Below, piece by piece: positions 1 through 30,615 of a stretch of DNA of 30,615 bases. Positions within the stretch are counted from its first letter, which is position 1. The number at the start of each line of letters is the position of its first letter. The translations under genes were made by a program, and so were the position numbers. The stretch is from a virus (lineage: Duplodnaviria > Caudoviricetes), in IMG/VR virus record IMGVR_UViG_3300020045_000961, positions 1 to 30,615 of that record. One strand, 5' to 3'. The notes beneath the pieces are model-generated. The model did no database searches and was not told where the DNA came from. It saw only the letters and a list, made by a program, of their open reading frames with translations.

Positions 1-121
1 CCCCTTTCAAAGGTATTAATTGTTGAGAATACTATTCATATTCTCGTGTAGGTATTTATACGAGATCGGTAAAATAGTATTATAATTGATTATTATTCTT
101 TTTCTACCCAACCTTGATTTA
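1..121. repeat. Terminal direct repeat, left copy (circular assembly overlap)
   Basis: Bases 1-121 are identical to 30495-30615. Joining the ends places the portal gene directly upstream of the scaffold gene. Confidence 0.97.
53..60 (-). promoter_or_regulatory. T4-late-type promoter TATAAATA upstream of the scaffold/capsid operon (duplicated at 30547-30554)
   Basis: Exact TATAAATA on the minus strand in the portal-scaffold gap, followed by a 7-bp leader hairpin (25-45). Confidence 0.65.
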
Positions 122-1565
122 ATAGAGTTTTCTTTTGTTCAAATGAAGTAGGCATTAACTCATCGCCTGTTTGAGGATTAAACAATAGCCTAGGCTCAAA
201 AGGTTCCATAGCATCTAATTGTTGTCCATTAACAAGTTCAGGCATAATGATATCCGCATCTTCACCTAGTAGTTCGATAACTTCATGGTCAATTACAGCA
301 AGAACTCTAGGATCAGTAGCAGCACTCTTTGCAGAAACTAGGTGAGCAAATTCACGATCAACATCTCGAATGTTGAAGGAATCAGGATACTTTACTTCAC
401 CATTCCAATGTAGACCTTGATATAGGCCAAATAATTCCCACATCTGTTCTTCTGTAAGCTCAAGTGAATCAGCTTTCTCAGATAGACGAGCATTCAATAA
501 TGCAAATTCAACTTCAAGTGCAACACCAGAAACTGAGGCAGTCCTTTGTCCCCTAACGGCTCCAGTATTACTCATATTATCAATAGAATCAACTAACTGA
601 TTAATTGACTCATGCAAAGCTCCGATATTGCCGCCGCCATGTTCTAGAACATAAGGCTTCAATCCTGGCTCAAGATCATTGGGTATCTGAATGACTGCAC
701 CTGCTCCAGAACCATATTGTGTGTCAGGTGTAACTACTAGAGAAGGGTGTCCATCTAATCTGTGAGACTGTTCAATTTCGCTATTGTAGTTGTAGATCAA
801 ACGTTGCATATCAGCAATGTCAGAGATATCACTTACGCCAATACCTTTAACGATGGAACGCTTATTATAGGATAGTATAGCAGGAATACAACCTAGTCCA
901 TTTACTTCAGTAGATTTTAGATAGGCTTCCTTCTTGTCATCATCCATAACCCAAGTATTGATAAGATCATTAGTCCACTCACGAACTACAGTAACCTTGC
1001 CTACAATCTCTTCAATGTATTTGAAGTATGTTAATTCGTATCTACCTGTAGGGCCTCGAGTCCATGTCCAATCCATAACTGCTAAAGGTGTAAGCATATT
1101 AATATAAGGACGAATGCCCATATCAAGTTCTGCACCTAGACTTTCTGCTCCAATATTAGGCTTTGTCATGATGATCCAAGTATGTCCAAATACTGAATTC
1201 CAAACTGCAATATCTTTCATGAACGAATCTAAATCACGTCCTTCTAAGTCAGCATCATTGAGAAAGGATTCTAAATCTACACGTCCTTCCCAATCCATAA
1301 ATTCTCGTTCTGGACAATCCTTGAATAGAAAACTAGAATAAACACTGATAACACTTTGAGCATGATTGTCTAAAGGGGTTGTCTTCAAACGTTGATTATA
1401 TTCTCCCTCAGTCTCAAGTTGATATTTTGTTAGATATCCTTGACGACGATATTCTTCTCCGCCTACATAAGAATAAAGTAGAAATTCCCAGCGGTCTCGA
1501 TTACGCATATATTCTCTATTGGTAACCGAAACTGCACGGTAGTCGTCTAAAAGTGTTTGATTCAT
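93..1565 (-). CDS. Portal protein (SPP1 gp6-like)
   Basis: 490 aa, directly after terL and before the scaffold. Typical segments: EYNQRLKTTPLDN, VFGHTWII, GVSDISDIAD, SGVALEVEF, VKYPDSF. Confidence 0.88.
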   Translation of the reverse strand: MNQTLLDDYRAVSVTNREYMRNRDRWEFLLYSYVGGEEYRRQGYLTKYQLETEGEYNQRLKTTPLDNHAQSVISVYSSFLFKDCPEREFMDWEGRVDLESFLNDADLEGRDLDSFMKDIAVWNSVFGHTWIIMTKPNIGAESLGAELDMGIRPYINMLTPLAVMDWTWTRGPTGRYELTYFKYIEEIVGKVTVVREWTNDLINTWVMDDDKKEAYLKSTEVNGLGCIPAILSYNKRSIVKGIGVSDISDIADMQRLIYNYNSEIEQSHRLDGHPSLVVTPDTQYGSGAGAVIQIPNDLEPGLKPYVLEHGGGNIGALHESINQLVDSIDNMSNTGAVRGQRTASVSGVALEVEFALLNARLSEKADSLELTEEQMWELFGLYQGLHWNGEVKYPDSFNIRDVDREFAHLVSAKSAATDPRVLAVIDHEVIELLGEDADIIMPELVNGQQLDAMEPFEPRLLFNPQTGDELMPTSFEQKKTLLNQGWVEKE

Positions 1566-1577
1566 AATTAATTCTCT

Positions 1578-2813
1578 TTAATGTGTTGCAAGTTGATGAC
1601 CCCATCTACGAGGTGCCATAGGAACTACTTCCTTCTTAATAGGGAACATATATCTAATGCAATATGAAGCAGCATCAAACATGTGATCCCATTTATCCTT
1701 ATCTGGTATACGAGTGCCTTCTTTAAAACAATACTTCTCGAGACTCTCAATAGTATATTTACACTTAGGATCAATAAAAAGCCTTCTTAGTCCGTTAGCA
1801 GAACATAAGCGAGCATTGTAAGCATTAATTCTATCTGCTACCTCATCGTGAGACATAGGAGCCTTTACTGTGAAGCCTGCCTGTTCTAGGATAGTAAAGT
1901 CTGTCTTACCTCCTGAACTAGTCTTACGTTGCCTAGAGGCAGGATCAGGATAGATTGTTATCTTACTTGTAGGATATCGTCTCTTTAACTCTTCTGCCAT
2001 CTGTCCAGTATGAGCATTGATCATATTGATCTCATCAAACTGATACATTACCTCGCCCATTTGAACAAAGATTGCGGCGGTGAGAGGAGAGTTATTAAAG
2101 TCCATTCCTACATGAAGAACTGAGGTATCTATATCTTTAATGTGTAGAACGTTCTCTTCCCTACTGAAGGCCCATGCAACTTGATTACTCGCAGTAGTAA
2201 ATGATCCTTCATACTCCTGCTTAAATTGTTGCTCACTCATTTCATTACGAGCTGCTTCGATCTCTGCCTCTGAAACAAACCCACCTTGCAATGTAGTGTA
2301 GGTAAAGGAGGCCCATTGTTCAGGGAAGTCTTCAGCCATATTGAACATATCAAATGCCCAATTACCTTTGCCAATAGGAGTTGTAATGAATAGTGCAGAT
2401 CCCTCTTGATCTGCTAGAGCAGGACGAATAACTAGATCCCAAGTATCGCGATCCATGAAGGCAAACTCATCAAAGATTGCTGCACTTAGTGAAACACCTC
2501 GTAATGAATCTGGATTATCTGCACCCTTAAGAGAAATAGTAGAACCATTCTTAAGTAGAAATTCTAAGTTGGTTTCGTTGATCTTCTTGACCCACCGTAG
2601 ATCTAATAGTTTCTTCTTAAGTCGTTTGAAGATAATAGTGCGGGACATTCTATATGAGGGAGATATATAGTAAACATCCTTATTAGGTTCCTTAGCTACC
2701 TTGCACATTTCTCGGATAGCCAATGTAGTCTTACCCCAGCGGCGGCCTGCGACTACTACTCTAAAGCGTTTATTGCATTGTGCAACTATCTTTTGAGTTT
2801 CACTTAGAGCCAT
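1578..2813 (-). CDS. terL: Terminase large subunit
   Basis: Walker A AGRRWGKT, LRG..L....FDE Walker B, TTP coupling motif, nuclease acidic motifs GMDFN and DHMFDA. Confidence 0.96.
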   Translation of the reverse strand: MALSETQKIVAQCNKRFRVVVAGRRWGKTTLAIREMCKVAKEPNKDVYYISPSYRMSRTIIFKRLKKKLLDLRWVKKINETNLEFLLKNGSTISLKGADNPDSLRGVSLSAAIFDEFAFMDRDTWDLVIRPALADQEGSALFITTPIGKGNWAFDMFNMAEDFPEQWASFTYTTLQGGFVSEAEIEAARNEMSEQQFKQEYEGSFTTASNQVAWAFSREENVLHIKDIDTSVLHVGMDFNNSPLTAAIFVQMGEVMYQFDEINMINAHTGQMAEELKRRYPTSKITIYPDPASRQRKTSSGGKTDFTILEQAGFTVKAPMSHDEVADRINAYNARLCSANGLRRLFIDPKCKYTIESLEKYCFKEGTRIPDKDKWDHMFDAASYCIRYMFPIKKEVVPMAPRRWGHQLATH

Positions 2814-2985
2814 CAGGGAATAAAATTTTAATTGTTGCGCTCACTAATGCGCCTGCGGCAGTTGCACCGGCGATATCAAAGTCAGCACCATAGTGTGAAC
2901 CAGTCATTGTTAAAATGAATGCAAGGCCTTGCCAAGTTGAGGATTCTTTTAAACGTTCGATTACAAATTCTTTTAGATTAATCAT
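2800..2985 (-). CDS. Small membrane protein, putative holin
   Basis: Likely start MINLKEF at 2985. RLKESSTWQGL is followed by two hydrophobic segments, a pattern seen in small phage holin-like proteins. Confidence 0.55.
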   Translation of the reverse strand: MINLKEFVIERLKESSTWQGLAFILTMTGSHYGADFDIAGATAAGALVSATIKILFPDGSK

Positions 2986-3379
2986 TATTATCATCCCAAG
3001 GTAAGGGAACATTACTTTCAGAATCAAAGGGAGAGTCAGATTGTCCTAATACATTCTTACCTAACCAAATAAGCATTGTTGCATTCCCGGATAGTGCTAG
3101 GCGAATCTGTGCTTGTCGTAGACTTTGATTTAAACTAAGTCTACCTTTTAGTAATTCTTGCTTGAAGTTATAATTCAAAGTCGAATCATCAATACCTACC
3201 CATTCAGCAATTTCACTATTCTTACATCCTATAGAAGCAAGTTTAAACACTTCTTTTGGATCGATTACTTTCTTATCTCTCCCACAGACAATACCTTGAT
3301 ACTCAGCAGTAACCAATGCTTTAGGTTTATTGCCTGTTTTCTTCTTAGGAGGGACGGGATTTGTTTCTGGTTGTTCCAT
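2978..3379 (-). CDS. terS: Terminase small subunit
   Basis: HTH-like EVFKLASIGCKNSEIAEWVGI, plus LRQAQIRLAL-SGNATMLIWLGKNVLGQ. Upstream of terL, with an AGGAG RBS. Confidence 0.8.
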   Translation of the reverse strand: MEQPETNPVPPKKKTGNKPKALVTAEYQGIVCGRDKKVIDPKEVFKLASIGCKNSEIAEWVGIDDSTLNYNFKQELLKGRLSLNQSLRQAQIRLALSGNATMLIWLGKNVLGQSDSPFDSESNVPLPWDDNND

Positions 3380-3384: not shown

Positions 3385-3394
3385 TATTTATTTA
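3385..3394 (-). promoter_or_regulatory. Tandem TAAATA late-type promoter for the packaging operon
   Basis: TAAATAAATA lies just downstream of a terminator and abuts the terS RBS. Confidence 0.55.
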
Positions 3395-3400
3395 GATCAT

Positions 3401-3424
3401 AAGAAAGCCGGTATTTAACCGGCT
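3401..3424 (-). terminator. Intrinsic terminator ending the non-structural operon
   Basis: AGCCGGT-TAAAT-ACCGGCT stem followed by TTCTT. Confidence 0.7.
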
Positions 3425-3430: not shown

Positions 3431-4003
3431 TTACAAAGGATTAACTTTTATGCTCCACCCTTTTAATTTACCTCTCCAAATCATATGTTCAAGACACATA
3501 GGTTTAACTCTATTACCAGTTAGAGCAATAGAATAGTGTAAATATTTTTGATTAAATGTTTGATACACAAAATCTTTAAATTTATCTATATTACTAAATT
3601 TATATTCAGTATGAGGTTTATCTACTAACCACATATATAATTCATTATACATTATTTTAGTATTATTATATTGTGGAAGTTGTTCCTTAAGATAGAGTTG
3701 TCTCTTATAAGGTCTATCAAATTCAGGATAGATATGATCAAACCTATAATGATAAACAATACTGGGCGGCATAGGATTATATGAGAGGTGAAACTTGTCA
3801 TAAAATTCTAATAAATCATTACCTGGAGTTCTAAGTATCCATTCGTGTGAGCCACATCTGTTTTTTACATTTTGTCTCCATTCTTTTGTTTTTGATCTCT
3901 CTAAAGCTGCTAATTTACAGTTCCAATTTGTAGTAAGTAGTTCCTCATCGGTAATATTAGGAAGTTCAATATTACCCCAAACTTCTGTGTTAGTATTTGT
4001 CAT
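3431..4003 (-). CDS. Hypothetical protein, possibly a homing-endonuclease-associated DNA-binding (NUMOD-like) protein
   Basis: 190 aa in the operon, with a basic helical segment and a C-terminal GKLKGWSIK end. No catalytic motif recognised. Confidence 0.5.
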   Translation of the reverse strand: MTNTNTEVWGNIELPNITDEELLTTNWNCKLAALERSKTKEWRQNVKNRCGSHEWILRTPGNDLLEFYDKFHLSYNPMPPSIVYHYRFDHIYPEFDRPYKRQLYLKEQLPQYNNTKIMYNELYMWLVDKPHTEYKFSNIDKFKDFVYQTFNQKYLHYSIALTGNRVKPMCLEHMIWRGKLKGWSIKVNPL

Positions 4004-4004
4004 A

Positions 4005-4799
4005 TTACTTCCAAAGTTGTTGTAGGATTTGAGTTCTTAATTTAGGATCAGAATTGTGATGGAGAATATCAGCAACTTTGATTGCTTGTCTAGGAGTTAC
4101 TTCAACTAAGTTTCTATAGTTTTCAGATAGATAATCTCGTGCTTCTTCAATAATTTTTTCTGGATAGCCTCCGGGAAACTCTTGACAATTAGTGCTCAAC
4201 ATATTGCAGTTCTCAATCAAGTGTAATGTATAACTAAACTTCTGCTCGTCAGTGAAGTTACATTCAGCAAAGTTAAAGCGAGAGAATATCGCTGCTTTCC
4301 ATTGTTTAATTGCTTTAGCGATATCTTCTTTTCGATCATTAGTGATCCAGATGATGTTACCTTGAAAATCAAAATTTGAAGGAACATTAAATTCTTCCAT
4401 CAGTGCATTCTTACGTGCTGTCTCCCAACTTACATCGCCTTTTTGTCCAAGTTCTGCGGCACCAAGTAGCATAGGGATGATTTGACGCTTTTCTCCGTGA
4501 TGAATAATATCACAGTCATCTAAAACAATGATTCTATGCTTTGCTCTATTCAAATAAAGTTTAACGTAAAGTGAGGCTGCTGTAATTTTGCCGCCTTTAA
4601 TATATTCAACATTAGATTGATGTCCTGTATCAATTAATGCCTTCTTAATCCAGTATGTTTTACCTGTTCCTGCATCTCCAGAAACAATCATACCATTAAT
4701 TGCTGAATTTGGATTTTGCACAAAACTAGTTGCTTGTGCATATATGCCTTCGAAGGTATCAGCGACTTCTTTGGCAATGGGGTTCATTTTTATCTTCAT
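4005..4799 (-). CDS. AAA+ family P-loop ATPase
   Basis: Walker A GDAGTGKT, Walker B IIVLDDCD, sensor-1-like IWITN, Arg-finger-like AIFSR. AAGGA RBS. Confidence 0.88.
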   Translation of the reverse strand: MKIKMNPIAKEVADTFEGIYAQATSFVQNPNSAINGMIVSGDAGTGKTYWIKKALIDTGHQSNVEYIKGGKITAASLYVKLYLNRAKHRIIVLDDCDIIHHGEKRQIIPMLLGAAELGQKGDVSWETARKNALMEEFNVPSNFDFQGNIIWITNDRKEDIAKAIKQWKAAIFSRFNFAECNFTDEQKFSYTLHLIENCNMLSTNCQEFPGGYPEKIIEEARDYLSENYRNLVEVTPRQAIKVADILHHNSDPKLRTQILQQLWK

Positions 4800-6319: not shown

Positions 6320-6673
6320 TTATTTGACTTTATTTGGCCCGCGAGGCTTACGTCCTATTCTTTTATTAGAATCACTTAATTGCTGTTTCCTAGAGATAAC
6401 TTTTATATTACCTATAGCCCATGCTTCGTTATGATCAATTCTAGTCATACATAATCCATCTGAATTTCTACTACGGATAATCCATTTTTCTAGGGGCCAA
6501 AAACTGCACCATTCCTCGAATGTAAGATGCCAGATTTCATCTCTAAACTTAGCTTGTGCTCGTTGACGCAGAAAAGGAACATGTCGCTCATGATCAAATG
6601 GTTCGGGGTATTTTTGTAAATGTGGGCGAGGAGCATACGGGTCATATAACTCGCCTGGGAAGTATTTTCGCAT
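6320..6673 (-). CDS. HNH-like (beta-beta-alpha-Me) endonuclease-family protein
   Basis: AKFR..W.LTFEEW..FW and CMTRIDH..W..GN..VI pattern. Confidence 0.6.
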   Translation of the reverse strand: MRKYFPGELYDPYAPRPHLQKYPEPFDHERHVPFLRQRAQAKFRDEIWHLTFEEWCSFWPLEKWIIRSRNSDGLCMTRIDHNEAWAIGNIKVISRKQQLSDSNKRIGRKPRGPNKVK

Positions 6674-6696
6674 TCTATGAATCTTTATAACAACTT

Positions 6697-6702
6697 TATT
6701 TA
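6697..6702 (-). promoter_or_regulatory. TAAATA late-type promoter
   Basis: ATAAATA in the 38-nt gap upstream of 6320..6673. Confidence 0.45.
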
Positions 6703-6711
6703 TGTTAAATG

Positions 6712-7143
6712 TTATTTCAGTTTACGATATGGAGATTTACCCATTACTCTTTTTAATGTCCATCCTAAATCAAACATTCTTGAAAAGAATGTTGCTGGAT
6801 TTATATCTAATTCTTCACACCACTGTTTCATTGTTTGTGTTTTATTATTGTATGTGATTATCCTATTTGAATTACAATTATTATAATTCTCTTTAGGAGT
6901 GCTCCATTTAATATTATCAATGCCATAAGAGGCATGATTATCAGGACGATCTAAATGATAGTTTCCAGGTGGTATAGGTCCTATTACACTTTCAACTTGT
7001 GATTTGAATATTTCAAAATTATCCCATTCTTTTGGATAACTTATATGTTTTGCCCCATAGAATTTCCAACTTAGGTGATTAGGGTTATTACAAGCACCTC
7101 TAAAGTAAACCCAACGATTGTATAATGGATCTTTATTTTTCAT
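6712..7143 (-). CDS. HNH endonuclease with C-terminal HTH
   Basis: C.NP....W..YGA..I....W..F..F, LDRPDN..Y..DNIKW.T..EN.NN, and TMKQWCEELDI...TF..R...GW. Confidence 0.78.
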   Translation of the reverse strand: MKNKDPLYNRWVYFRGACNNPNHLSWKFYGAKHISYPKEWDNFEIFKSQVESVIGPIPPGNYHLDRPDNHASYGIDNIKWSTPKENYNNCNSNRIITYNNKTQTMKQWCEELDINPATFFSRMFDLGWTLKRVMGKSPYRKLK

Positions 7144-7334
7144 TTTTCATCCTTCTTATATTTTTTAACTGGGATACCTTCACTAATCAGTTTGAAAGCA
7201 TCCTCTCTAGATATCCATTTTAACCAGGCATTATGTTCTGTGCAGAATAATGCTGGTGCAGGATGAGAATTTCCGTATACTACTTTCCATCGTATATCTA
7301 TCTCACACTTATTATGATTTTTAATTTTTGTCAT
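7140..7334 (-). CDS. Small putative Zn-binding protein
   Basis: H..C and C..H pairs plus WLKWIS. Overlaps both neighbours. Confidence 0.6.
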   Translation of the reverse strand: MTKIKNHNKCEIDIRWKVVYGNSHPAPALFCTEHNAWLKWISREDAFKLISEGIPVKKYKKDEK

Positions 7335-8913
7335 TTAATTCTTCTACAAACGGATCTAATTCAGGATCATACTTAGGTTCACCTCTGTATCCTGCATCGT
7401 ATTCGTCACTACCTTTATATACTCTTCTCTTTTCTTTCAAAGATTTTAACTTCTTATAGTTGTTTATTATGTGTAAAGGAATAACACCATTATGAGCAAT
7501 GAATTCTTGATTGGACATAAAATTCTTATGTGCAGTTTCTTCATGAAATGCCCAACCTTCAATTTTAGTCTCTTCAATCTTACCTTCTTTGTTAAAAGAT
7601 TTTAATATCTCACGAATAGTTACTGTATTAACCGGCTTGCGAGTATAGAATGCATCATGACATAATAGTAAGATTTCTGATTCTTCAGAGGCCGCCATTA
7701 GTGCATTCATAATCATGCGTTCTGATTGTTGATAGCAAAATGCAATAACTTTATTAATACTTAATTGTCCACGTTTATTTTTTAATTCTTCCCTTTGAAG
7801 GCCAGGCAGATTCTTAATATCGTTATAAATTAAACGATTCATAATCTCTTGTTCTTCAACAAATTCCTTAACCCAACTATCTTCTAAAAAGATTTTACGT
7901 TTATGTGGATCTTTTAATATCTCAGATAAGGCTGATGTTTTCCAAGTCTTTCCATTATCTAATGTCCATACTGTATTTTGTGCCTTTGCTCCAAACCCTA
8001 TTGCTGTAATTAATTGCTTAACAATCGCAAGTGAGAATTTATTATCTTCAAACCCTATTAGAGCAACCTTAGACTTTCGAATTGCTTCTTTCTTATCTAA
8101 ATATTCTATAGTTGCTGGAAATTTAGCAGTAGGATCTATTTCCGTTGCATTAGATAGTTTCCAGGCAAATACACTATTTTCTAAATCATATTGATAACTG
8201 CGGCCTAGTGCAGCATTGCGAACCTCTTTAGGAACTGATTGTAAATTAACTCCTGTAAGGTATTGTCTACCAAATTCGCTTTCTTTTATTAATTGAGGAA
8301 GACTGAATATACCATACAGTTCCTCTGAGAATGTTGCAAGTTTCTTAATTTTTTTTGCATCATTTAGATAATCATCGATTCTACCATATCTTTTTGGTAA
8401 TGATAGATTTGCAGAGATATATGCATCTAACGAGCGTTGATCTATAGGGGTCCATTTAACAATCTTAGGATTAGTTAAATCTTCTATGTTTTCAATTTTA
8501 TCCAGAATATAGTAAGTGAATAACTCTTCCGGAGTTAGAATAGCCTCAACTTCTTTAGACCATTCTGCATTATGTATGGGAGTTACCATTGTTCTTATAC
8601 CTTTAAAACTATTACCTTTTTCTACTATTGTGACTATTGGATAATGCGTATGTAACCAATCTAGCCAATAATGTTGATTATTATATCTGGGAAGAGTTCT
8701 TCGAATTAATTCCCATTCGAATGGACATGTATTTGAAGTGAGTTGTTCTCCGGTTGCGTAAAGTGTTCCTTTACATATCTGCTCACCAAATAACTCAAAA
8801 TATTGATTCAATATTTGTAAGTGATTAGTTCGTTGCCCGGAATATTCCTTTTGCATCTCGATAATAATCGATGATACATCATAAGGATGATTGAATATCA
8901 ATTTTGCTGTCAT
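7321..8913 (-). CDS. Family A polymerase-like protein (TV-Pol-like), no exonuclease domain
   Basis: GRQY...NLQSVPK..R.A, motif A YDLEN, motif B KQLITAIGFG, N...YQ..E and motif C LLCHDAF, in the Pol A order. Confidence 0.75.
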   Translation of the reverse strand: MTAKLIFNHPYDVSSIIIEMQKEYSGQRTNHLQILNQYFELFGEQICKGTLYATGEQLTSNTCPFEWELIRRTLPRYNNQHYWLDWLHTHYPIVTIVEKGNSFKGIRTMVTPIHNAEWSKEVEAILTPEELFTYYILDKIENIEDLTNPKIVKWTPIDQRSLDAYISANLSLPKRYGRIDDYLNDAKKIKKLATFSEELYGIFSLPQLIKESEFGRQYLTGVNLQSVPKEVRNAALGRSYQYDLENSVFAWKLSNATEIDPTAKFPATIEYLDKKEAIRKSKVALIGFEDNKFSLAIVKQLITAIGFGAKAQNTVWTLDNGKTWKTSALSEILKDPHKRKIFLEDSWVKEFVEEQEIMNRLIYNDIKNLPGLQREELKNKRGQLSINKVIAFCYQQSERMIMNALMAASEESEILLLCHDAFYTRKPVNTVTIREILKSFNKEGKIEETKIEGWAFHEETAHKNFMSNQEFIAHNGVIPLHIINNYKKLKSLKEKRRVYKGSDEYDAGYRGEPKYDPELDPFVEELNDKN

Positions 8914-9028: not shown

Positions 9029-9062
9029 TATTTATTATAAAGAGAAAATTATCAGGTGTAAA
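9029..9062 (-). promoter_or_regulatory. Composite promoter of the polymerase gene (sigma70 plus TAAATA)
   Basis: TTTACA (9057-9062)-17 nt-TATAAT (9034-9039), overlapped by TAAATA (9029-9034). Confidence 0.65.
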
Positions 9063-9167: not shown

Positions 9168-9216
9168 AGCCTCACACGAGTTTTGAAAGGACTGCGGAGA
9201 GCCTCACACGAGTTTT
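9168..9216. repeat. Two perfect 17-bp direct repeats AGCCTCACACGAGTTTT (iteron-like)
   Basis: Copies at 9168-9184 and 9200-9216 with a 32-bp period, non-coding, next to hairpin 9116-9139. Confidence 0.85.
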
Positions 9217-9554: not shown

Positions 9555-9583
9555 ATTATATATTGGTTTTACCTATAAGTCAA
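9555..9583 (-). promoter_or_regulatory. Strong sigma70-type promoter
   Basis: TTGACT-17 nt-TATAAT. Confidence 0.8.
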
Positions 9584-9794: not shown

Positions 9795-10193
9795 TTATTT
9801 ATCATTGATTTTCTTTTTCATCTTAATATCTTCTGTTTTTCTACAAATAGAACATTTACGTGTGTAACTACCTTCTCGTAATTTATAGACAAAATTCTGT
9901 GAAATAACTTCAGAATCACACAATTCACAGGTGCTTTTTACAGGTTTATGACGAAAAACTACAGGATATATTGTAGAATTATGTTGTTTTAGGTTAGACT
10001 CACTATCGTCAATTTCTTTATATAATTCATCTAACTCGTCTACAGAAATAGGAATTTTCTTTGCGGGGCCTGGTCTCTTAGGTTGGTTACTTGTAGTTTT
10101 AGATCGTGTTTTTAATGCAGTATATGAGTTATGAACAGTCATAGACCAATCGCAAAACTTATCAAGGTATTCTTTAAATTTTATTGCATTCAT
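9795..10193 (-). CDS. Hypothetical protein with C-terminal zinc ribbon
   Basis: CELC...CSIC pairs and a basic N-terminal half. Confidence 0.7.
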   Translation of the reverse strand: MNAIKFKEYLDKFCDWSMTVHNSYTALKTRSKTTSNQPKRPGPAKKIPISVDELDELYKEIDDSESNLKQHNSTIYPVVFRHKPVKSTCELCDSEVISQNFVYKLREGSYTRKCSICRKTEDIKMKKKINDK

Positions 10194-10231: not shown

Positions 10232-10417
10232 TTAGGCTATTTGATCTAATTGTTTCTGCAACTCGGCAATCTTTTCCGATAACAATTGTTGACTTGCTTG
10301 GGCTTCAATCTCTTTCCTAATTTGACCTATTGCCTCTGCAACTTCGACTCCAGAAAATTCAGAATAAATCTGTCTCATTAAAGTTAAGATTCGTTCTTTA
10401 GGTGTAATATTATTCAT
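10232..10417 (-). CDS. Small helical hypothetical protein, probably leaderless
   Basis: 61 aa. TAAATA (10423-10428) lies 5 nt before the ATG and there is no SD. Confidence 0.65.
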   Translation of the reverse strand: MNNITPKERILTLMRQIYSEFSGVEVAEAIGQIRKEIEAQASQQLLSEKIAELQKQLDQIA

Positions 10418-10434
10418 AATATTATTTACTATGA

Positions 10435-10851: not shown

Positions 10852-10918
10852 ATTATTCCCTATTGTTGGGAATAATTCCCAACTATATTTATTTTGTATT
10901 ACTGATTTATGTGATTAG

Positions 10919-11269
10919 TTAATTTAAAACTAGATCCCAATTAATATTTTGCTCGTTCCAAACATATAATTGTCCATCCTGAGGTTTATTAACTGGAGCT
11001 TTCCATAAGCAAGTATTCTCATCTAATATCCAACTTGAATGAGGTTTAACAGGAATAAATGCATCTCTTAATGCATCATATGCATACCCTACACACGCAT
11101 AATTTTTTCTCAACGGAATACCATTTAAATTATGGTTGCCCGCATATGTATTATAACTGGTTTGAATCCACATACTAGGAGATCCGAATATTCCAGAAAG
11201 GATAACTTCAGGATCAACAACAATTACTTGCTCTACTCTATTATTAATTACTTTTGCAAAATGTGCCAT
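10919..11269 (-). CDS. Conserved phage protein that accompanies glycine-rich fibre genes
   Basis: Likely start MAHFAK at 11269. WIQTSYNT...RKNYA..GY.YD...DAFIP..P..SW motif that I recall from aquatic phages. Confidence 0.7.
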   Translation of the reverse strand: MAHFAKVINNRVEQVIVVDPEVILSGIFGSPSMWIQTSYNTYAGNHNLNGIPLRKNYACVGYAYDALRDAFIPVKPHSSWILDENTCLWKAPVNKPQDGQLYVWNEQNINWDLVLN

Positions 11270-11277
11270 ACTAACCC

Positions 11278-12336: not shown

Positions 12337-12337
12337 T

Positions 12338-12499: not shown

Positions 12500-12500
12500 T

Positions 12501-17302: not shown

Positions 17303-17328
17303 CCTATTCTTTTAGAAATAGGAACTTA

Positions 17329-19556: not shown

Positions 19557-19564
19557 TGCATTCC

Positions 19565-22360: not shown

Positions 22361-23130
22361 TATGTGTTTATCTCTGTTGGATCAATTCCTGCACCGTAAC
22401 GAGTATTAGTCATATAATCATATAAACAATCTCCAGGTTTATGCATAGAATTTGTTAAATGATATTTTACAGTCCCTAATCCTGTTACATTCTTATCTCT
22501 ATTGTAATCAACTTTAACAACTGAGAATATTAAATTATTCATTGTGTGTGTAGAAGTAGTCCAACCGGGAAAGTAAGAGGCAGCATTATCTAATTCGGTA
22601 TTTGTATAACCTGTAGGAGTTTGAGGAGAAGCACTTCCGCCTACATACGTTATAATGCTTACTTGACTTTGCAAAGAATAGTCAATGTTACTATCTCGAT
22701 CAACGGTATAATCTACGGTAATTCCATCAGTTTTAAAGATTATTCGTTGATCATTCCAATAGATATCTTCTACTAGATAAGTGCTTGCAAGTCCATCACT
22801 TAGTTTAGTCCCTGTCTTCTCAGTTAACGTAATTGCATAATACATTGTCTTATTAGTATTAGTCATTACTGCATCAGTAATGTTTCCACTAAAGAAAGCA
22901 GATCCATATAAGACAGGAATCTTTGAATCAGTATTTGGTGCAACCTGTAATCTAACGCCTGCGTCAATATTACTAGTATCACTATTGTTATCTTTAATTG
23001 CATTCTTAGATAGTTCGTTTGCAATTAACGCAATACCTGCTACCTTCACTAGTGAGGAAGCAATAGAATTCTCCGAGAAGAAATTAGAAACAGAATTACC
23101 TACCGAGGATATATCATCTAAAAAGCTCAT
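22360..23130 (-). CDS. Tail tip protein, N-terminal part of a J-like protein
   Basis: KIPVLYG and PGDCLYDYMTNTRYGAG motifs typical of siphovirus tip proteins. Confidence 0.75.
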   Translation of the reverse strand: MSFLDDISSVGNSVSNFFSENSIASSLVKVAGIALIANELSKNAIKDNNSDTSNIDAGVRLQVAPNTDSKIPVLYGSAFFSGNITDAVMTNTNKTMYYAITLTEKTGTKLSDGLASTYLVEDIYWNDQRIIFKTDGITVDYTVDRDSNIDYSLQSQVSIITYVGGSASPQTPTGYTNTELDNAASYFPGWTTSTHTMNNLIFSVVKVDYNRDKNVTGLGTVKYHLTNSMHKPGDCLYDYMTNTRYGAGIDPTEINT

Positions 23131-23687
23131 GTAGAGGCTCCAAAGTTAAAGTTACTTCTAGCTAATCCCGGAATGCGATCAAATGAGGCATCAGTAGGAT
23201 ACAATAGACGTTCATCGGTAGGATTAGTTCTTCGTCCTGTAATCTTGTTATCTAGCATCTCAATAATGTTAGTAGACACAATAGTTAGGACAATATTACC
23301 AGTATCGTTTGAAAGATCATCACTAATGCTAAAGTTAGAAACAACTCCTATAAATTTACCTACAAAATTAATTAAGGAGGCAGTATCTGGATTAAAGAAT
23401 CCTCTAGAAACAGTAATCTTACTTCCCTTAATCTTATGATCCAAAATATCAGGAATATTATTACTTGGTATTCCAGAAATACCAATCGTAAGTTCCTCCT
23501 GAGTTGCACGTAGACTACTTGTAGTTTGAGTAATAGATAATAGTTGTCCTAACCCGGTATAATCAACTCCTCCTTGTGATAATGTTTTATGATAATCAGA
23601 AAAGGTTAATACTTGATAAGAAGGAATATCAATCTTAACAAATATATTAGTTTGAATACTATTGTATGCTGAGAGATTGATAGTCAT
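23127..23687 (-). CDS. Minor tail/hub protein
   Basis: Likely start MTINLS at 23687 (TAATG overlap). YTGLGQLLSI, GRRTN and FNFG motifs, in the third position after the tape measure. Confidence 0.7.
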   Translation of the reverse strand: MTINLSAYNSIQTNIFVKIDIPSYQVLTFSDYHKTLSQGGVDYTGLGQLLSITQTTSSLRATQEELTIGISGIPSNNIPDILDHKIKGSKITVSRGFFNPDTASLINFVGKFIGVVSNFSISDDLSNDTGNIVLTIVSTNIIEMLDNKITGRRTNPTDERLLYPTDASFDRIPGLARSNFNFGAST

Positions 23688-24301
23688 TAAATTGCCTCTG
23701 CAAAAACAAATGCACCAGACCAACTTACTTGATCACGAGCAAAGATAGTCCATTGTGGGAAGGTAGTGCAAATGACATTCCAACTTACACTTTGTCCTAC
23801 TACTAGATTATATGTTCCAGTTGATTCCCTCACAGGGCGATGAACAGTAATATCATTGCTATTCCATGTTACGTCATTTACAATTGTATAAACACTTCCT
23901 GTTGAACCAAGTTGAATAAAATCTCCAGATTTAAATTTATATCCAGAAGTCAAAGTCGGGGTAGGACTTGTAATTGTGAGAGAGGTTCCTGTTGTAAAAG
24001 AAACTGTTAGTCCTGTAGTTGTAGAAAGATTACCTTGATAACCATTAATCCAACTTAAATCAGGTGAATTAATTTGAATAGTAGAAATTGTAGTTCTATC
24101 TAAGGCTTCCATTTGTTCAATTAATGGACGCATCTCAGTCCACTTAGGTCCTGAGGGAGGTGTTATCTCAAATGTCCAAATTTGTCCACCCATAGATGTA
24201 GTCTTAACAGTTCCATCTCGTGAAACAGTTTGAGAAATCTTTTTCTTTTTACCGAGGGAGATACTTGTTGCAGTATCTATAATAGTTTGAAATGCACCCA
24301 T
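23687..24301 (-). CDS. Distal tail protein-like
   Basis: Directly follows the tape measure. FKSGDFIQ..VY.IV and C-terminal F.F.E motifs. Confidence 0.68.
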   Translation of the reverse strand: MGAFQTIIDTATSISLGKKKKISQTVSRDGTVKTTSMGGQIWTFEITPPSGPKWTEMRPLIEQMEALDRTTISTIQINSPDLSWINGYQGNLSTTTGLTVSFTTGTSLTITSPTPTLTSGYKFKSGDFIQLGSTGSVYTIVNDVTWNSNDITVHRPVRESTGTYNLVVGQSVSWNVICTTFPQWTIFARDQVSWSGAFVFAEAI

Positions 24302-24304: not shown

Positions 24305-26464
24305 TTATCTCCTTGTTGTTGGCACTGATTTAGCACCTTGTTGAGTCACTGCATAAAGGAAGCTCGGATCACGTGCGATCATTTGCTTGAAACTTGCTGC
24401 ATCAACTGCTTGTATGTTATATGTCACCGCAGTATTATTTCCACCACCAGAATTTAATTGACTATTAGAAGCAATTGTGCCCGAGCCTGCTGGCATGAAT
24501 ATTTCAGGACCGTTCTCGCCTACTAAGTATGCGCCGCCTGCACTGACTCCACCTCCTCCTGCTCTAGATCCACTTAGAAAACTTAATCCCTGAGAAAGTA
24601 AATCACTTCCTGCTCCTGCTAGATTAGTAAACAACTGAGTAACTTGAGCCTTTAATGCAATCTTAATTAAATCCCTAACAACTGAATCAGCAAAATCAGC
24701 AAAGGATTTTCCTCCCTTATCAACAAAGTTATCAACTGCACTTCCCATATTAGAGAAAATACTATTTGCCATATCTTCACCTTGCCTAAGTGGACTCATA
24801 CTTTCTAAGTAACGATCCATAGTTTCCTTAAATCCTGCAGAGAAATCTAAGTTACGTTGTTTCTGCGCAGCAGCTTCAGCTTCAATAAGACCTTTACGTT
24901 TTCCAATCTCGACATTTAATCTTTGTTCAGCAGCCAATCTTTCATCATTAGGCAGATCTTTAATATTTGAGATATCAAGTAATGTAGACTTACGAAGTTC
25001 TTCTAAGTTGAATAGATCAGTTAGACGTTGTTGTTCAATTGCAGAAAGACCTACAATCTGTTGTTGTAGTGCAAATTGACCTTTAAGTGAGTCAGTTCCG
25101 CGAGAGAATGATTCATCTTGCGATTTTAGTTGAGATCTTGCATCGTCTCTTGCTTTAATAGCATCAATCTCTGCTTGAGTTTCGTTATCAATCATTCTCA
25201 TTACTGCATCGTAACGATCTTTCCGATACTTTTCATCGGAGTCTCTTTCGAACTTAGCAATATCTGTTGTCTGTTTTGCACGGACTTCGGTTACCTTAGC
25301 AGCAATTTCTTTTGCTTTTTGTTCAGGAGAGATATCTTCTTTTGCATTAATATCAGCGGTTGCTTTAGCAATATCAGCTGTAGCGGTTGCATTGATGATC
25401 TTTAACTCATTCCCAGAGCGAATAGCAATCTGTTTACGAACTTCAGCCTGAGATTCTAGAATACGTTTTTCTGATTCGGCTGCTGCTTTAATGGAGGCCT
25501 CGGGAGGACCACCATATCCTCCCTTACTTGTATCTGCTCTAGTGCTATTACCGTAAGGTTTCATTGCTTCTTCCATCGTCTTTAAACGATAGGCTTCTAA
25601 TTCCTTTGTTGACATAGGAACTGATTGAGGAGGGGTAGTTCTAAGATGAGTAAAAGGAAAAGATAATTGTTCCTGTAAATTCATAGGACGCTGTCCCTTT
25701 TTAGCCAAAGCCTCTTCTTTATCTGATTGACGCTTTGCTGCTCTGTCCCCAGCATCTTCGGCTTCTTTAATTTTAAGAGCTAATCCTCCAAACACAGTAA
25801 GTAGTCGAGTTTCTGCAGCATTTGCTATGGCATCTAATGCATCACGATACTTCCCAAGTTGTTCAATTTGTGCATCCTTAAATGGATCATTAATTGCATT
25901 AACTTTAGTCCAATCAATTTTGGCTGCTTCTTTACCCATTAATGCAACTGCTGTTGCGGCACGAGTAGCAGGATCTTCTATTTGAGCCAATTTTCTAATA
26001 ACATCCTGAAGAATATCACCAGTATTTCTCATTTTTCCTGAGGCATCAGTAACAAATACACCTAAATCTTTGAAAGATTTTTGATATTTTGCATTTCCCA
26101 TTCCTGCCTCGCCAACTGCGATAGAAAGTTTAGTTGCAGCCTTTTCAAACGACTCAGCGGAACCTCCGCCTAAGATCATACTCTGCTTTAAATTTACTAA
26201 TTGCCCTGCAGCAATACCGGTTGCAGATGATAGATCACCGAAAGTATCAGCAACATTAATTGCCTTTAATCCTAAGGAGACAAATGCTCCTGCTGCTCCA
26301 AAAGCTAGACCTCCTACTACGCCTAACTTTCCTCCAACTAGATCTAAGCCTGAGCCCAGGGCTCCGGTATTAGCACCTGCTTTTTTTATAGAATCTGCTA
26401 GAGAGCTAATACCAGCTACTCCCTCAGTCTTAAATCTTAGAATGAAATTCTCAATTGTTGCCAT
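24305..26464 (-). CDS. Tail tape measure protein
   Basis: 719 aa, Ala-rich and helical, with lambda-like C-terminus FADFADSVVRDL...RAGGGGV...YLVGENGPEIF. Confidence 0.93.
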   Translation of the reverse strand: MATIENFILRFKTEGVAGISSLADSIKKAGANTGALGSGLDLVGGKLGVVGGLAFGAAGAFVSLGLKAINVADTFGDLSSATGIAAGQLVNLKQSMILGGGSAESFEKAATKLSIAVGEAGMGNAKYQKSFKDLGVFVTDASGKMRNTGDILQDVIRKLAQIEDPATRAATAVALMGKEAAKIDWTKVNAINDPFKDAQIEQLGKYRDALDAIANAAETRLLTVFGGLALKIKEAEDAGDRAAKRQSDKEEALAKKGQRPMNLQEQLSFPFTHLRTTPPQSVPMSTKELEAYRLKTMEEAMKPYGNSTRADTSKGGYGGPPEASIKAAAESEKRILESQAEVRKQIAIRSGNELKIINATATADIAKATADINAKEDISPEQKAKEIAAKVTEVRAKQTTDIAKFERDSDEKYRKDRYDAVMRMIDNETQAEIDAIKARDDARSQLKSQDESFSRGTDSLKGQFALQQQIVGLSAIEQQRLTDLFNLEELRKSTLLDISNIKDLPNDERLAAEQRLNVEIGKRKGLIEAEAAAQKQRNLDFSAGFKETMDRYLESMSPLRQGEDMANSIFSNMGSAVDNFVDKGGKSFADFADSVVRDLIKIALKAQVTQLFTNLAGAGSDLLSQGLSFLSGSRAGGGGVSAGGAYLVGENGPEIFMPAGSGTIASNSQLNSGGGNNTAVTYNIQAVDAASFKQMIARDPSFLYAVTQQGAKSVPTTRR

Positions 26465-27280: not shown

Positions 27281-27321
27281 AAATCTTTTTCCTTTTAATC
27301 TGGACGTTGCGTCCTTGTTAT

Positions 27322-27492
27322 TTACTGTTCTCTAATTATCAACTCATTTATAAGCATTAAAGTAAAATTTAATCTACTGCTAATCTTATTGAGATCGGAT
27401 TGAGCACATCTTAATTCATTTGAGGCCTTAGCTGCTTCAGCGAGTAAACTCTTAAGCAGATCCTCGTTACTCTTATTATCTAGTATATCCAT
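27322..27492 (-). CDS. Small coiled-coil protein (56 aa)
   Basis: MDILDNKSNEDLLKSLLAE...IREQ, AGGAAG RBS, TAAATA at 27510-27515. Confidence 0.7.
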   Translation of the reverse strand: MDILDNKSNEDLLKSLLAEAAKASNELRCAQSDLNKISSRLNFTLMLINELIIREQ

Positions 27493-27522
27493 ATATCTTT
27501 CTTCCTACGTATTTAATCAAAT

Positions 27523-27551
27523 AAACGAAAACAGGGCGATTAAGCCCTGTT
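27523..27551 (-). terminator. Intrinsic terminator after the major tail gene
   Basis: AACAGGGC-TTAATC-GCCCTGTT followed by TTCGTTT, then TAAATA. Confidence 0.78.
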
Positions 27552-27568: not shown

Positions 27569-28030
27569 TTAAACTACAGTATATTCACCAGACACAGTTA
27601 ATGTGATAGGAGTGACCCATACTGGATTTGCTGCTGATACTGCTGGTGCTAGACCAGTAATATAACCAACACCACTAATAGACTTCGAACCAAGATTGAT
27701 ACTGAAATCAACCTTTGTCTTATCTACGGATAATCCAAGTAATCCCTTCTTCTTTGCAGAACCAGTTGTAGCTGCTGCATCACCGAAGAACGAATCAAGT
27801 TCAACAACAATGTTAGAGCTGATGCTGTTAGTAGAGTTTGTTGCTACTTGAAGCTTTGCACTTTCATTTAGTTGAGACCAGGTGAACACATCATTCGCAT
27901 TGTTGATGGTTACATCCTGTAGAGTTGGCAATAACAATGTTGTTGCAGTGGTTCCAGTAGAACCACTTACGTTAATTGTTAGAATCGGGTTGTTTACACC
28001 TGCCGCCGATTGAATGTATGAAGTTGTCAT
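27569..28030 (-). CDS. Major tail tube protein
   Basis: 153 aa, G.GYITGLAP.VSA...V..TPITLTVSG C-terminus, synteny, strong RBS and own terminator. Confidence 0.8.
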   Translation of the reverse strand: MTTSYIQSAAGVNNPILTINVSGSTGTTATTLLLPTLQDVTINNANDVFTWSQLNESAKLQVATNSTNSISSNIVVELDSFFGDAAATTGSAKKKGLLGLSVDKTKVDFSINLGSKSISGVGYITGLAPAVSAANPVWVTPITLTVSGEYTVV

Positions 28031-28040
28031 ATCTTTTCCT

Positions 28041-28433
28041 TTAGGTTAATTTTGTGAATCTAAAATCCAACTGTGTGACCATTAAGTCGCCTTCGAAGAC
28101 AGTATTTGTATCTACTGCTCTTTTGAAATAAGATGAGTCTACTGTAGAAACATCTTTTCCTGCTCTTAGCGTATCCACCACAGTCTGATAGTTAGACGGT
28201 AGATTCTTTGCATCAGTAGTGAAGTAAACACTAACGCTATGAACTTCCTGATAAATGTCTCCGCCCATTACAGGCATAAAGGTTTCATTAGAGACTTGCT
28301 CTAGATCCACATAAATCCTTTTAGGATTCTTTAGATACATTACAGTAGAATTACTTGTAAATGGTAACTCAGAACTAACAACAAAGTTAGTCATCGTGAA
28401 TCCATTAAAATAATTTACAAGTTCTGTTCTCAT
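28041..28433 (-). CDS. Putative tail terminator/completion protein
   Basis: 130 aa immediately before the tail tube. Confidence 0.6.
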   Translation of the reverse strand: MRTELVNYFNGFTMTNFVVSSELPFTSNSTVMYLKNPKRIYVDLEQVSNETFMPVMGGDIYQEVHSVSVYFTTDAKNLPSNYQTVVDTLRAGKDVSTVDSSYFKRAVDTNTVFEGDLMVTQLDFRFTKLT

Positions 28434-28936
28434 CGTATTCTCTTAAGATTATAAATCCCTGGCTTCTTTTCGCTGCTCTCAACTGTAGTATTACCATCAA
28501 AGTCATACCAATCACCTGCGGTGATTAACTCTGCAAATAACTTATCTGCTCGTTGTGTATAGTAACTCATCTTATTCATTTCAGCATTATCTGCTGAACC
28601 AAAATCTGCGATTCTAGGTAAAATGTATTCAGACATTGCTACTGCTATACAATAGTCAGTAAAGTCATCCTGACGGTCTACTATCTTATTAGGATTGAGG
28701 GCGGGAACATCAGCCAACGAAGTAATAGAAGATGAACTACGATTGATATAGTAACTCATCCACCATTCACTAGAGCGTAATCTTGTAAGAATACGTCCAG
28801 TAGCCTTAGTTAAAAGGTCTTCGATGATAACGTCAGTGAGTCCTTCATTAGTCTCAAAAAGTCTTTGATCAGCAGCAAGCATATCGTCATGATCTGCAAA
28901 GCTGACCGTATTTCCAGTTATTTTAATGAAGGACAT
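28430..28936 (-). CDS. Putative head-tail adaptor
   Basis: 168 aa, helical, immediately after the major capsid gene. Confidence 0.62.
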   Translation of the reverse strand: MSFIKITGNTVSFADHDDMLAADQRLFETNEGLTDVIIEDLLTKATGRILTRLRSSEWWMSYYINRSSSSITSLADVPALNPNKIVDRQDDFTDYCIAVAMSEYILPRIADFGSADNAEMNKMSYYTQRADKLFAELITAGDWYDFDGNTTVESSEKKPGIYNLKRIR

Positions 28937-28949: not shown

Positions 28950-29801
28950 TTAGCTAATTACACCGTCAGCAGTGATTGCGATACCGTGTGTGCTTTGTAG
29001 CACTGCGGAACCAGCTACCGCTGTAAGAACAACGTCAGTAGCACGTTCTTTTGGAAGATACAAACTGTTCATAGCGATTCCACCACGCATTGCTTGACCT
29101 AGAGCGGACTTAGCAAATACACCTGCTTTATAAGCAGTTGCACCACCAGTTGTTACAGCAGCAACTAAGCTGGATTCATAGATTTGAATGCCAGCAACAC
29201 CGCCGATGTAGAACGAACTTAGAACGCTTTCACCTACACCGCTCAATTGAGGAATGTTTGTTTGTGCGCTGTAAGAAAGTTGTTTCTTAAGGTTGTATGC
29301 TTGTGCTGGGTGAACCACTGCGAAGAATGGGCCAGTTAGCTTACGGCTACGTAGAGTAGCAGCACTCTTCAATAGCAAGTCTACAGTAAGTTCTGTAGAA
29401 GTAGAACCGATATCGCTGGAGAACGAACCGAAGTTACCGAATACATCAGTATCTAGTGCTTCAGCAATTGCCATACCTGCACCGTTACCGATGTCAGCCA
29501 TTACATTACCGTAAGCAGAGTCACGTAACATATCAGTAATTTGGTGATACGAAACGAATTCAGCAAGAGTGATCGTGCCGTTTGTTGTGTTTGTATCAGC
29601 AGCAGTTGCAGCAGATTCATCAGTGATCTTTTGAGCACTAACACCACCCCAGATAGGAACTTGAAGAACCTTACCAGCGTTAAGTGGAGCATCGTAAACT
29701 GTTACAAGTTGACGAGCGACGGAGTTTTCGTAAGCAGCATATTCAGCAGCAGTTACAAGGTTTGCGAATAATTCGCTGTTAATAGCAGTTGTATTTGACA
29801 T
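28950..29801 (-). CDS. Major capsid protein (HK97 fold)
   Basis: 283 aa after the scaffold, GKVLQVP, AIAEALDTD, AVVHP.Q...L and IGGVAGIQIYES motifs. Higher GC and biased codons. Confidence 0.9.
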   Translation of the reverse strand: MSNTTAINSELFANLVTAAEYAAYENSVARQLVTVYDAPLNAGKVLQVPIWGGVSAQKITDESAATAADTNTTNGTITLAEFVSYHQITDMLRDSAYGNVMADIGNGAGMAIAEALDTDVFGNFGSFSSDIGSTSTELTVDLLLKSAATLRSRKLTGPFFAVVHPAQAYNLKKQLSYSAQTNIPQLSGVGESVLSSFYIGGVAGIQIYESSLVAAVTTGGATAYKAGVFAKSALGQAMRGGIAMNSLYLPKERATDVVLTAVAGSAVLQSTHGIAITADGVIS

Positions 29802-29821
29802 TTTAAATTTCCTTTAAATGA

Positions 29822-30484
29822 TTATCGTTTATTTGATGCCTGCGCTTGAGCATATAGTTTCCTGTGTTCAGGATTTTTCATATCAAGTTTAGACAAATCT
29901 ATCTTTTCACGACTTTGACCAATATTGGATTTACCTTGTGTAGTTGCCGGTGTAGGTTGAACAAAGTGAGGATTAGTATCAAGAAACTCTTTAACTAAAT
30001 CTTCTACTTTGAAAGGGGTTCCAGAATCGTTATATCTAACTTTTCCTTCTTTATCCACAATTTCTACATTACCTTCCGCACTAAGTCTAACATTTGGCTT
30101 AAGTAATGCCTTAACTTGATCTGGATTAACAGACCTAAGTGTAGCAGCAGCATTAACCAACGGAACATCCACAGTATATTCTTTAATGATCTGATCGCGA
30201 CGCTGAATCTCAGCATCCTTTTTAGCAGCTAATTCCTGTAGAACTTTTTCAAATTCTCCACGCTTTACTTGATCATCCGTCTTACGCTTTTCAGCTTCAG
30301 ATTTTAGATTTTTAAGTTCATCTAAATCACCTAGTTCGCCTAAGGTCTTTTCATACTTTTTAGTAATGCTAGACTTCATTCGGGCCATATGGTTGTCGAA
30401 TTCCTCTTGAGTATAAGTTTTAGTTGCTGCCTGGTTTGTTTCAGAAGATCCAGTATCTTCATTAGCCAACGTATTGTCTGACAT
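29822..30484 (-). CDS. Capsid scaffolding protein
   Basis: KTYTQEEFD start, charged coiled coil, VKEFLDTNPHF. Located between portal and capsid. Confidence 0.85.
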   Translation of the reverse strand: MSDNTLANEDTGSSETNQAATKTYTQEEFDNHMARMKSSITKKYEKTLGELGDLDELKNLKSEAEKRKTDDQVKRGEFEKVLQELAAKKDAEIQRRDQIIKEYTVDVPLVNAAATLRSVNPDQVKALLKPNVRLSAEGNVEIVDKEGKVRYNDSGTPFKVEDLVKEFLDTNPHFVQPTPATTQGKSNIGQSREKIDLSKLDMKNPEHRKLYAQAQASNKR

Positions 30485-30494
30485 TGTAGCATTG

Positions 30495-30615
30495 CCCCTT
30501 TCAAAGGTATTAATTGTTGAGAATACTATTCATATTCTCGTGTAGGTATTTATACGAGATCGGTAAAATAGTATTATAATTGATTATTATTCTTTTTCTA
30601 CCCAACCTTGATTTA
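30495..30615. repeat. Terminal direct repeat, right copy
   Basis: Identical to 1-121 and includes the last portal codons (30587-30615). Confidence 0.97.

Follow-up and report, generated by a model that had tools for sequence, protein, structure and literature searches.

A candidate helper-dependent phage whose virion genes lie behind T4-like late promoter boxes

The viral record IMGVR_UViG_3300020045_000961 (Duplodnaviria; Caudoviricetes) is a stretch of 30,615 nucleotides, called the window below, in which a short sequence, TAAATA, recurs between the genes and there only on the coding strand. An earlier note, made from the sequence alone, had proposed that the window is a self-packaging 'bacterial virophage', with virion genes behind promoters of the T4 late type and switched on only when a large T4-like phage co-infects the cell. 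Here we ask what the box is and which factor would read it. TAAATA emerges as a conserved, strand-specific and promoter-like box in the register of the T4 late promoter, and the window as a likely satellite phage borrowing the late sigma factor of a helper.

Gene content of the circular genome

The window closes into a circular genome of 30,494 bp with a 121-bp terminal overlap, and every one of its 42 called genes lies on the minus strand, as do the boxes and promoters given below; a tRNA search of the window found none. Searched against PHROGs and Pfam (cut-off E<=0.01), the 42 proteins include a virion set of portal, terminase, scaffold, capsid, tape measure, distal tail and fibre proteins, such that head and tail are both encoded, unlike in P4, PICI and PLE elements, as the earlier note had held. 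In the direction of transcription, a TATAAATA box (53..60, equal to 30547-30554) lies across the circular junction and, followed by a leader hairpin, precedes the gene for the head scaffolding protein (29822..30484; phrog_206, E 1e-11). Then come the major capsid protein (28950..29801; phrog_267, E 2e-11) and the likely tail tube, terminator and head-tail adaptor genes (27569..28936), which have no family match and are assigned by position and conservation. The likely tail tube gene ends in a terminator (27530-27551), after which two boxes (27510-27515 and 27319-27324; together 27319..27551) would restart the tail operon, and the same layout of terminator and then TAAATA is found after the tail tube gene in relatives. 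The operon continues with the tape measure protein (24305..26464; PHROGs and Pfam), the long tail thus being phage-encoded, with tail tip, hub and distal tail genes (17526..24301; phrog_2048, phrog_1302, Big_5) and with tail fibre and spike genes (10919..17523; PHROGs and Pfam), among which lies a box at 17297-17302.

The remaining virion genes serve packaging. Three boxes (3385..3417), of which that at 3412-3417 spans the loop of a hairpin (3406-3424), stand before the gene for the terminase small subunit (TerS; 2978..3379; phrog_309, E 0.003), whose predicted message is leaderless with the arrangement TAAATA-N5-ATG. There follow a small hydrophobic protein (2800..3027) with weak matches to unnamed PHROGs only, which may be holin-like, the terminase large subunit (1578..2813; phrog_2, E 3e-45) and the portal protein (93..1565; phrog_145, E 8e-51), the terminase gene holding an in-gene TAAATA (1756-1761) about 190 nucleotides upstream of the portal start.

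The non-virion region comprises an AAA ATPase, two HNH-type genes, about ten unknown small proteins and a polymerase-like protein of family A with 530 residues (7321..8913). Two boxes, at 10886..10891 and within 10232..10428, precede a gene for 138 residues and a predicted leaderless gene for 61 residues (TAAATA-N5-ATG), respectively; in the former case a predicted hairpin (10848-10880, z -3.3) covers the ribosome-binding region just after the box. The next gene encodes a Zn-ribbon protein (9795..10193; CxxC...CxxC), a candidate regulator. Behind a terminator (9605-9624) a sigma-70 promoter, TTGACT-17-TATAAT (9555..9583; 11/12), lies upstream of an early gene for 78 residues, while another, TTTACA-17-TATAAT (9034..9062; 11/12), overlaps the TAAATA at 9029-9034 upstream of the polymerase gene. 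Between these promoters two perfect 17-bp direct repeats (9168..9216) are candidate iterons of a replication origin. The HNH-type genes (6320..7143; phrog_3377) have a box between them (6697-6702), and the ATPase, of the T4 NrdC.10 type (4005..4799; phrog_1250, E 4e-33), is followed, here and in relatives, by a protein of 190 residues (3431..4003), whose low-confidence model bears a weak likeness to homing-endonuclease DNA-binding modules and none to sigma factors.

The earlier note had recognised no gp55, gp33, clamp, endolysin, helicase, single-stranded DNA-binding protein or integrase. The family search agrees, with no match among the 42 proteins except that the AAA ATPase alone gave marginal helicase-loader, clamp-loader and helicase matches (E 0.005-0.008), and no sigma factor family was found either.

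The TAAATA box in the window, its relatives and bacterial islands

All 14 TAAATA sites of the earlier note, as well as an internal TATAAATACC at 19718-19727, lie on the minus (coding) strand where it had placed them, those at 53-60 and 30547-30554 being one site by virtue of the terminal overlap; four more in-gene sense sites (1761, 12667, 15458 and 20889) and four in-gene antisense sites were absent from its list. Strictly intergenic sense sites number 11 against 2.33-2.44 expected, a count reached by none of 5000 dinucleotide shuffles, and 13 if two stop-overlapping sites are included, with no intergenic antisense site at all. Coding sequence has fewer copies than expected in either orientation, with 6 sense sites where 300 synonymous-codon shuffles give 16.9 and 4 antisense sites where they give 22.4. 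The predicted intergenic and strand-specific enrichment over shuffled sequence is thus present. TAAATA ranks second of the 4096 hexamers with a Poisson p of 3e-5, which becomes about 0.13 after correction for 4096, so that the window alone is not decisive and it is the relatives that make it so.

We compared 28 small records of 24-48 kb, some incomplete, including the window and DSL-LC06, with genes of the relatives taken from a simple open reading frame caller and expectations from a first-order Markov model. Together they hold 167 sense TAAATA against 38.4 expected and 6 antisense against 30.5, such that the enrichment extends to related genomes, whereas six cultured small aquatic phages have none (8 against 16.5 sense, 16 against 11.3 antisense). 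In IMG/VR, where the capsid has about 487 relatives, a sense box occurs in 14 of 14 capsid-related loci (28 against 6.8 expected, antisense 0) and in 39 of 40 polymerase-related loci (144 against 36.6; antisense 21 against 27.6). The signal is specific to the hexamer: 17 of its 18 one-mismatch variants lie at 0.55-1.34 times expectation and GAAATA at 1.94, as against 4.38 for TAAATA itself. The enrichment persists at 46-49% GC (G033, G035 and G042). The shuffles, the codon controls, these high-GC relatives and the cultured controls rule out AT-richness as its cause. An archaeal TATA box is likewise ruled out, the bases before TAAATA being variable and the genes having bacterial ribosome-binding sites and sigma-70 promoters.

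The position of the box is as regular as its strand. Of 69 distinct regions upstream of the scaffold gene, drawn from 79 of 94 loci, 68 have it within 120 nucleotides of the start, and in the single exception the start was called inside the gene. Counted by record, it stands before scaffold in 19/19 and before TerS in 14/19, and is within 120 nucleotides of the portal gene in 8/24. It accompanies siphovirus-like, podovirus-like, P22-like and HK97-like virion modules, so named from reading their proteins. Boxes are not confined to virion genes, the polymerase gene being also preceded by one in 6 of 17 relatives. No cultured member was found among 50,697 phage records, and a look-up of sequencing runs for 22360-30484 of the window listed none.

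The spacing of the box to the start codon bears on its register. TAAATA-to-ATG distances peak at 4-5 nucleotides (15 and 18 cases, with 4 at six), whereas TATAAT in the same genomes peaks 6 nucleotides before ATG (9 cases), a one-base offset that fits T-11 to A-6. If the messages are leaderless, the boxes would thus occupy -11 to -6, the tail of the T4 late box, of which the available text of PMC2988020 states that it has no -35 partner and that its first two bases are numbered -13/-12. A stands at -12 in 64% of 162 sites, and no TTGACA-like -35 conservation was found upstream of the box (168 and 65 aligned sites). The octamer TATAAATA, which the earlier note had taken as consensus, is replaced by (A)TAAATA, a hexamer with a preference for A before it. 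The 5-nucleotide spacing at TerS recurs in G010, G015 and G018, and the cultured HTVC008M, which has gp55, shows the same peak with 11 sites at 5 nucleotides. Of 32 strong sigma-70 promoters, by comparison, 31 are directed at non-structural genes, and none of 11/12 strength was found in the window between 17000 and 30615. Early genes are served by sigma-70 promoters, and a housekeeping promoter resembling TAAATA was not seen.

The box also extends to bacterial chromosomes. Members of the polymerase family were found at 12 loci in bacterial genome assemblies, most of them from Burkholderiales. The five loci inspected are small islands (about 4-9 kb) that carry tyrosine recombinases or integrases, the polymerase, DUF6641/DUF6876 and a few short proteins, some of them coiled-coil; in three islands the GC content is below that of the flanks. 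Most island genes have TAAATA upstream, several of them 4-5 nucleotides before ATG, and with borders drawn by eye the counts of island against flank are 10 vs 0 (Limnohabitans parvus isolate; 14 kb against 7.3 kb), 3 vs 0, 10 vs 1, 3 vs 1 and 9 vs 8. In one more island the box stands upstream of the polymerase gene and of a divergent gene pair. The islands have little room for a sigma factor, so that an outside reader is the simplest reading; no gp55 was found in the five host genomes, in a search in which no positive control matched. Of 151 genomes from the family to which L. parvus belongs, 2 have the island polymerase, for which no plasmid match was found. We regard these islands (L241:2600-21100, where L. 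parvus II-B4 carries three in tandem, and L238, L240, L237, L234 and L432) as candidates for a new class of satellites or defence islands that gp55 would trigger. A capsid-targeting role, suggested by a resemblance of the island-protein starts M[KR]I.EI, was not counted as evidence, the pattern being rare (0-4 per genome) in the large phages tested. The Thauera island also has a clamp-loader-like AAA protein (L234:1923-2588; phrog_168, E 4e-29) near the polymerase gene.

The factor reading the box

From these comparisons we consider it likely, at a probability of roughly 0.6, that the window is a helper-dependent satellite phage borrowing the gp55-type late sigma factor of a large phage for its virion genes. 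After entry, host sigma-70 would drive a few early genes, including that of the TV-Pol-like polymerase, which would likely act as a primase or initiator at the nearby repeats, while the particle genes would stay silent until a phage of the T4 superfamily brings gp55. It is host RNA polymerase, equipped with the gp55-type sigma of the co-infecting phage, that would then read the boxes, and the helper would probably supply replication and lysis functions as well. Of the three factors that the earlier note had named as readers, gp33 and the gp45 clamp need not take part, since gp55 alone gives basal transcription, more so on supercoiled DNA (PMC2988020, available text), and phage CBB, with an ATAAATA motif at 35 places, has a gp55-like sigma without gp33 or gp45 as far as the available part of PMC5259590 goes.

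Several observations weigh against such a dependence. In the window the octamer TATAAATA is not enriched (1 against 0.24-0.32 expected, p 0.21-0.28), and, the circular genome having its genes on a single strand, sigma-70 read-through could reach the virion genes. The counts over the relatives are uncorrected for kinship, G051 and G054 having the same gene set, while among the islands L237 is the one with nearly as many sites in the flank (9 and 8) and L432 has 6 against 3.35 expected overall. T4, CBB, PA5oct, DSL-LC02, V45v66 and Dv7757 have 0-2 sites at 5 nucleotides and no peak, PA5oct shows no intergenic TAAATA excess over Markov expectation (53 against 51), and the gp33 of T4, where no clamp is bound to the DNA, represses basal transcription (PMC2988020, available text). 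Recent gene exchange with a large phage was not found, the 12 IMG/VR carriers of close ATPase relatives being all small, and the polymerase is present in 3 of 30 RaK2-type gp55 loci, seemingly of one lineage. A search for the capsid family in GTDB contigs found no bacterial copy, which, together with the lack of an integrase in the window, leaves the meeting with a helper unexplained; co-entry as in MiniFlayer, or a plasmid-like state until the helper arrives, would be guesses. Finally, most small early proteins have no family, so that a remote reader could be hidden among them.

This last point leads to the alternative that survives best, although we think it unlikely, namely an autonomous phage in which a small early protein of its own, either a diverged gp55 or an unrelated activator derived for example from the Zn-ribbon or HNH-type genes, reads TAAATA. 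The early genes do have sigma-70 promoters, and the Zn-ribbon gene forms the end of the tail operon, as ogr does in P2. Yet no non-structural family of up to 330 residues is universal in the 28 records, the HNH-type being present in 19/28 and the Zn-ribbon in 14/28, and neither was found in the islands, which hold only the genes listed above. A recognisable self-encoded sigma was not found either: gp55 (phrog_234) was recovered neither from the window nor from any of 10 near-complete relatives, and RaK2-type late sigma and Sigma70_r2 each from none of 11 near-complete records, whereas the positive controls PA5oct, CBB, T4 and DSL-LC02 matched across these searches. A gp55 hidden Markov model (HMM) built from five sequences, run over 11,777 six-frame stretches, reached a best E of 0.17 in a small phage. 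Structure-model look-ups of two window genes considered as hidden sigma factors (3431-4003 and 5968-6318) gave no usable lead, and the Zn-ribbon model (pLDDT 72) has only matches of Z<=3.1, which exclude nothing.

Less probable still is that a factor of the host, sigma-70 or an alternative sigma, reads the box with no helper needed. The presence of the box in many unrelated elements is what a host-read signal would show. Against this stand the register, one base off TATAAT, the mere 15 occurrences of TAAATA-N4/5-ATG in the 3.0-Mb L. parvus genome, of which 5 fall in the island cluster, and the cultured phages of Pelagibacter, Methylophilaceae and Rhodoferax, which show no TAAATA enrichment.

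We give little credence to a facultative mode of life, in which read-through would sustain low-level growth alone and the boxes would serve only to raise it, or to time interference, during co-infection by a T4-type phage. The one-strand circle and the scarcity of predicted terminators from the early promoters to the packaging genes would allow it, but boxes placed directly behind terminators start transcription anew within the tail operon, and no endolysin match was found in the window's proteins or in the selected proteins of relatives.

The polymerase was recognised by alignment, a single-protein scan having given nothing. Its model (pLDDT 82) finds its best structural matches in DNA polymerases (Z 14.8), T7 and mitochondrial RNA polymerases scoring lower (Z 8.7-8.8), and among viral models it matches the Zamilon replication protein (E 2e-8). 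R216, D243 and H419-D420, which correspond to the hairpin Arg and the two palm Asp of family A, are invariant in 18 sequences, as are R279 and K299, which lie 20 residues apart, whereas the TV-Pol fingers motif is RxxxK. Five residues after the motif-A Asp, at what we take to be the steric gate, stands Val and not Glu. The protein has no exonuclease match, and no D5 helicase was found fused to it, adjacent or elsewhere in the window. Repeats of at least 17 bp lie within 350 nucleotides upstream of its gene in 9 of 19 records, which would fit a replication role, probably that of primase or initiator, and the primase/polymerase activity of TV-Pol is itself a prediction in the available text of PMC2579912. 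An HMM that recovers all known members finds no polymerase in nine near-complete relatives, three of them with closed ends, which keep the box all the same (44 against 9.4), as does DSL-LC06, such that the window's own polymerase is not needed to read TAAATA. That it is a minimal T7-like RNA polymerase reading the box, as its early gene, the Val and the RNA polymerase matches might suggest, is therefore hardly credible, the more so as DNA polymerases score higher and its own gene often lies behind the box. G010 was set aside as a polymerase-less genome, its contig being linear and perhaps cut there. The near-complete genomes G050-G059 and L015 (DSL-LC06), of 27-35 kb, in which no polymerase homologue was found, also gave no repressor, integrase or lysin family in the proteins tested.

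Candidate helpers and known satellite systems

For the helper-dependent satellite, the candidate helpers are aquatic T4-like myophages of the HTVC008M kind, which have the same leaderless layout, or jumbo phages of the RaK2/PA5oct type, considered because one of their lineages carries the same polymerase family. A gp55-like factor is encoded by each of the first three large phages found with this family, of which two are RaK2/PA5oct-like jumbo fragments and the third is Desulfovibrio phage 7757. In the jumbo fragments (G039:C1:29716-31233 and G041:C1:28627-30237) the polymerase occupies the slot after gp55-gp47-gp46, which is mostly non-coding in PA5oct and CBB. These jumbo copies have direct repeats upstream, possibly an origin module, and the gp55-like genes of both fragments are in pieces, owing to frameshifts or assembly errors. 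The island hosts are Betaproteobacteria, and the nearest cultured capsid relatives infect Pelagibacter. Two other pointers to a helper were rejected, the 129-residue gene at 10919-11308 being too widespread and the carriers of the ATPase, taken as a sign of exchange with a jumbo phage, being all small phages. This ATPase is 71-82% identical among 12 of 12 small TAAATA phages of different virion modules, and with its downstream partner (window:3431-4799) it forms a mobile two-gene cassette among siphovirus-like and podovirus-like small phages.

On a wider view, we would give even odds to the idea that bacterial 'virophages' and small integrated islands form a widespread guild. Its members, whose virion modules are of at least four unrelated kinds, would have converged in using the T4 late promoter both as sensor and as source of power, each being built or mobilised only in a cell infected by a large phage that encodes gp55. 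Such gating would also account for the lack of a cultured member despite the abundance of the genomes. If true, a large group of uncultured aquatic phages would parasitise other phages via transcription rather than capsids or tails, their isolation would call for a T4-type helper, their ecology would be read differently, and the box would be a cheap genomic marker for helper dependence; the cultured Limnohabitans parvus II-B4, carrying islands with the same box, allows a direct test.

Sputnik-type virophages reportedly have late signals in common with their helper. The resemblance of the window to Sputnik and Zamilon (PMC2579912, available text) extends to an own capsid and, by way of the model match, to the polymerase, but remains an analogy, the window being a tailed bacterial virus with no D5 helicase fused or adjacent; as to the linkage of TV-Pol to D5 helicase or to integrase/resolvase, the island copies adjoin tyrosine integrases. 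The late promoters of the T4 family (available text of PMC2988020 and PMC5259590) share with the window the TAAATA core, the A before it, the lack of a -35 and the place before virion genes, and differ in that the window has no detectable gp55 and conserves a 6-mer, not an 8-mer; HTVC008M shares the leaderless 5-nucleotide spacing with the group.

Satellites with a capsid and tail fibres of their own have already been described, as in MiniFlayer. It and MulchRoom, Streptomyces satellites (PMC10690885, available text, as for the statements on them that follow), likewise have their own capsid and packaging genes and lack key replication genes, whereas the window has a TV-Pol-like gene and no helicase or single-stranded DNA-binding protein match. 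Among 50 selected proteins of three closed genomes no replication family was found except endonuclease VII. MiniFlayer is non-integrating, and the window is likewise without an integrase match. The window differs in its full long tail with a tape measure and in that the proposed dependence concerns late transcription; helper dependence is proven for the Streptomyces pair and is a proposal for the window. Neither 'promoter' nor 'sigma' appears as a word in that available text. P4, PICI, cf-PICI and PLE (PMC10690885 and PMC12822802, available text) share activation by a helper, and the Burkholderiales islands resemble them in size and integrase content, but these elements borrow capsid and/or tail and integrate, in contrast to the window with its own head and tail. 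A satellite or prophage using gp55, TAAATA or a helper's late sigma in trans was not found in the literature by title and abstract, most subscription journals lying outside the coverage.

Among phages related through the virion, DSL-LC06 (proposed Nanhuiviridae, PMC10611076) and the HTVC111P-type pelagiphages have capsids 31-36% and terminases 42-50% related to those of the window. DSL-LC06 has the box before TerS and scaffold, as in the window; it is metagenome-assembled, and the available text of PMC10611076 mentions neither promoters nor satellites. The three cultured HTVC111P-type phages tested are without TAAATA enrichment. Many relatives carry, between portal and scaffold, a gene that reads as Dps/ferritin-like (L008:473-1078 and others) and that the window is without. 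One closed record of 36 kb (G021:C1:4412-9248) combines an HK97-like virion module with two island-related integrase-like genes and the polymerase, and is a possible integrating member of the group.

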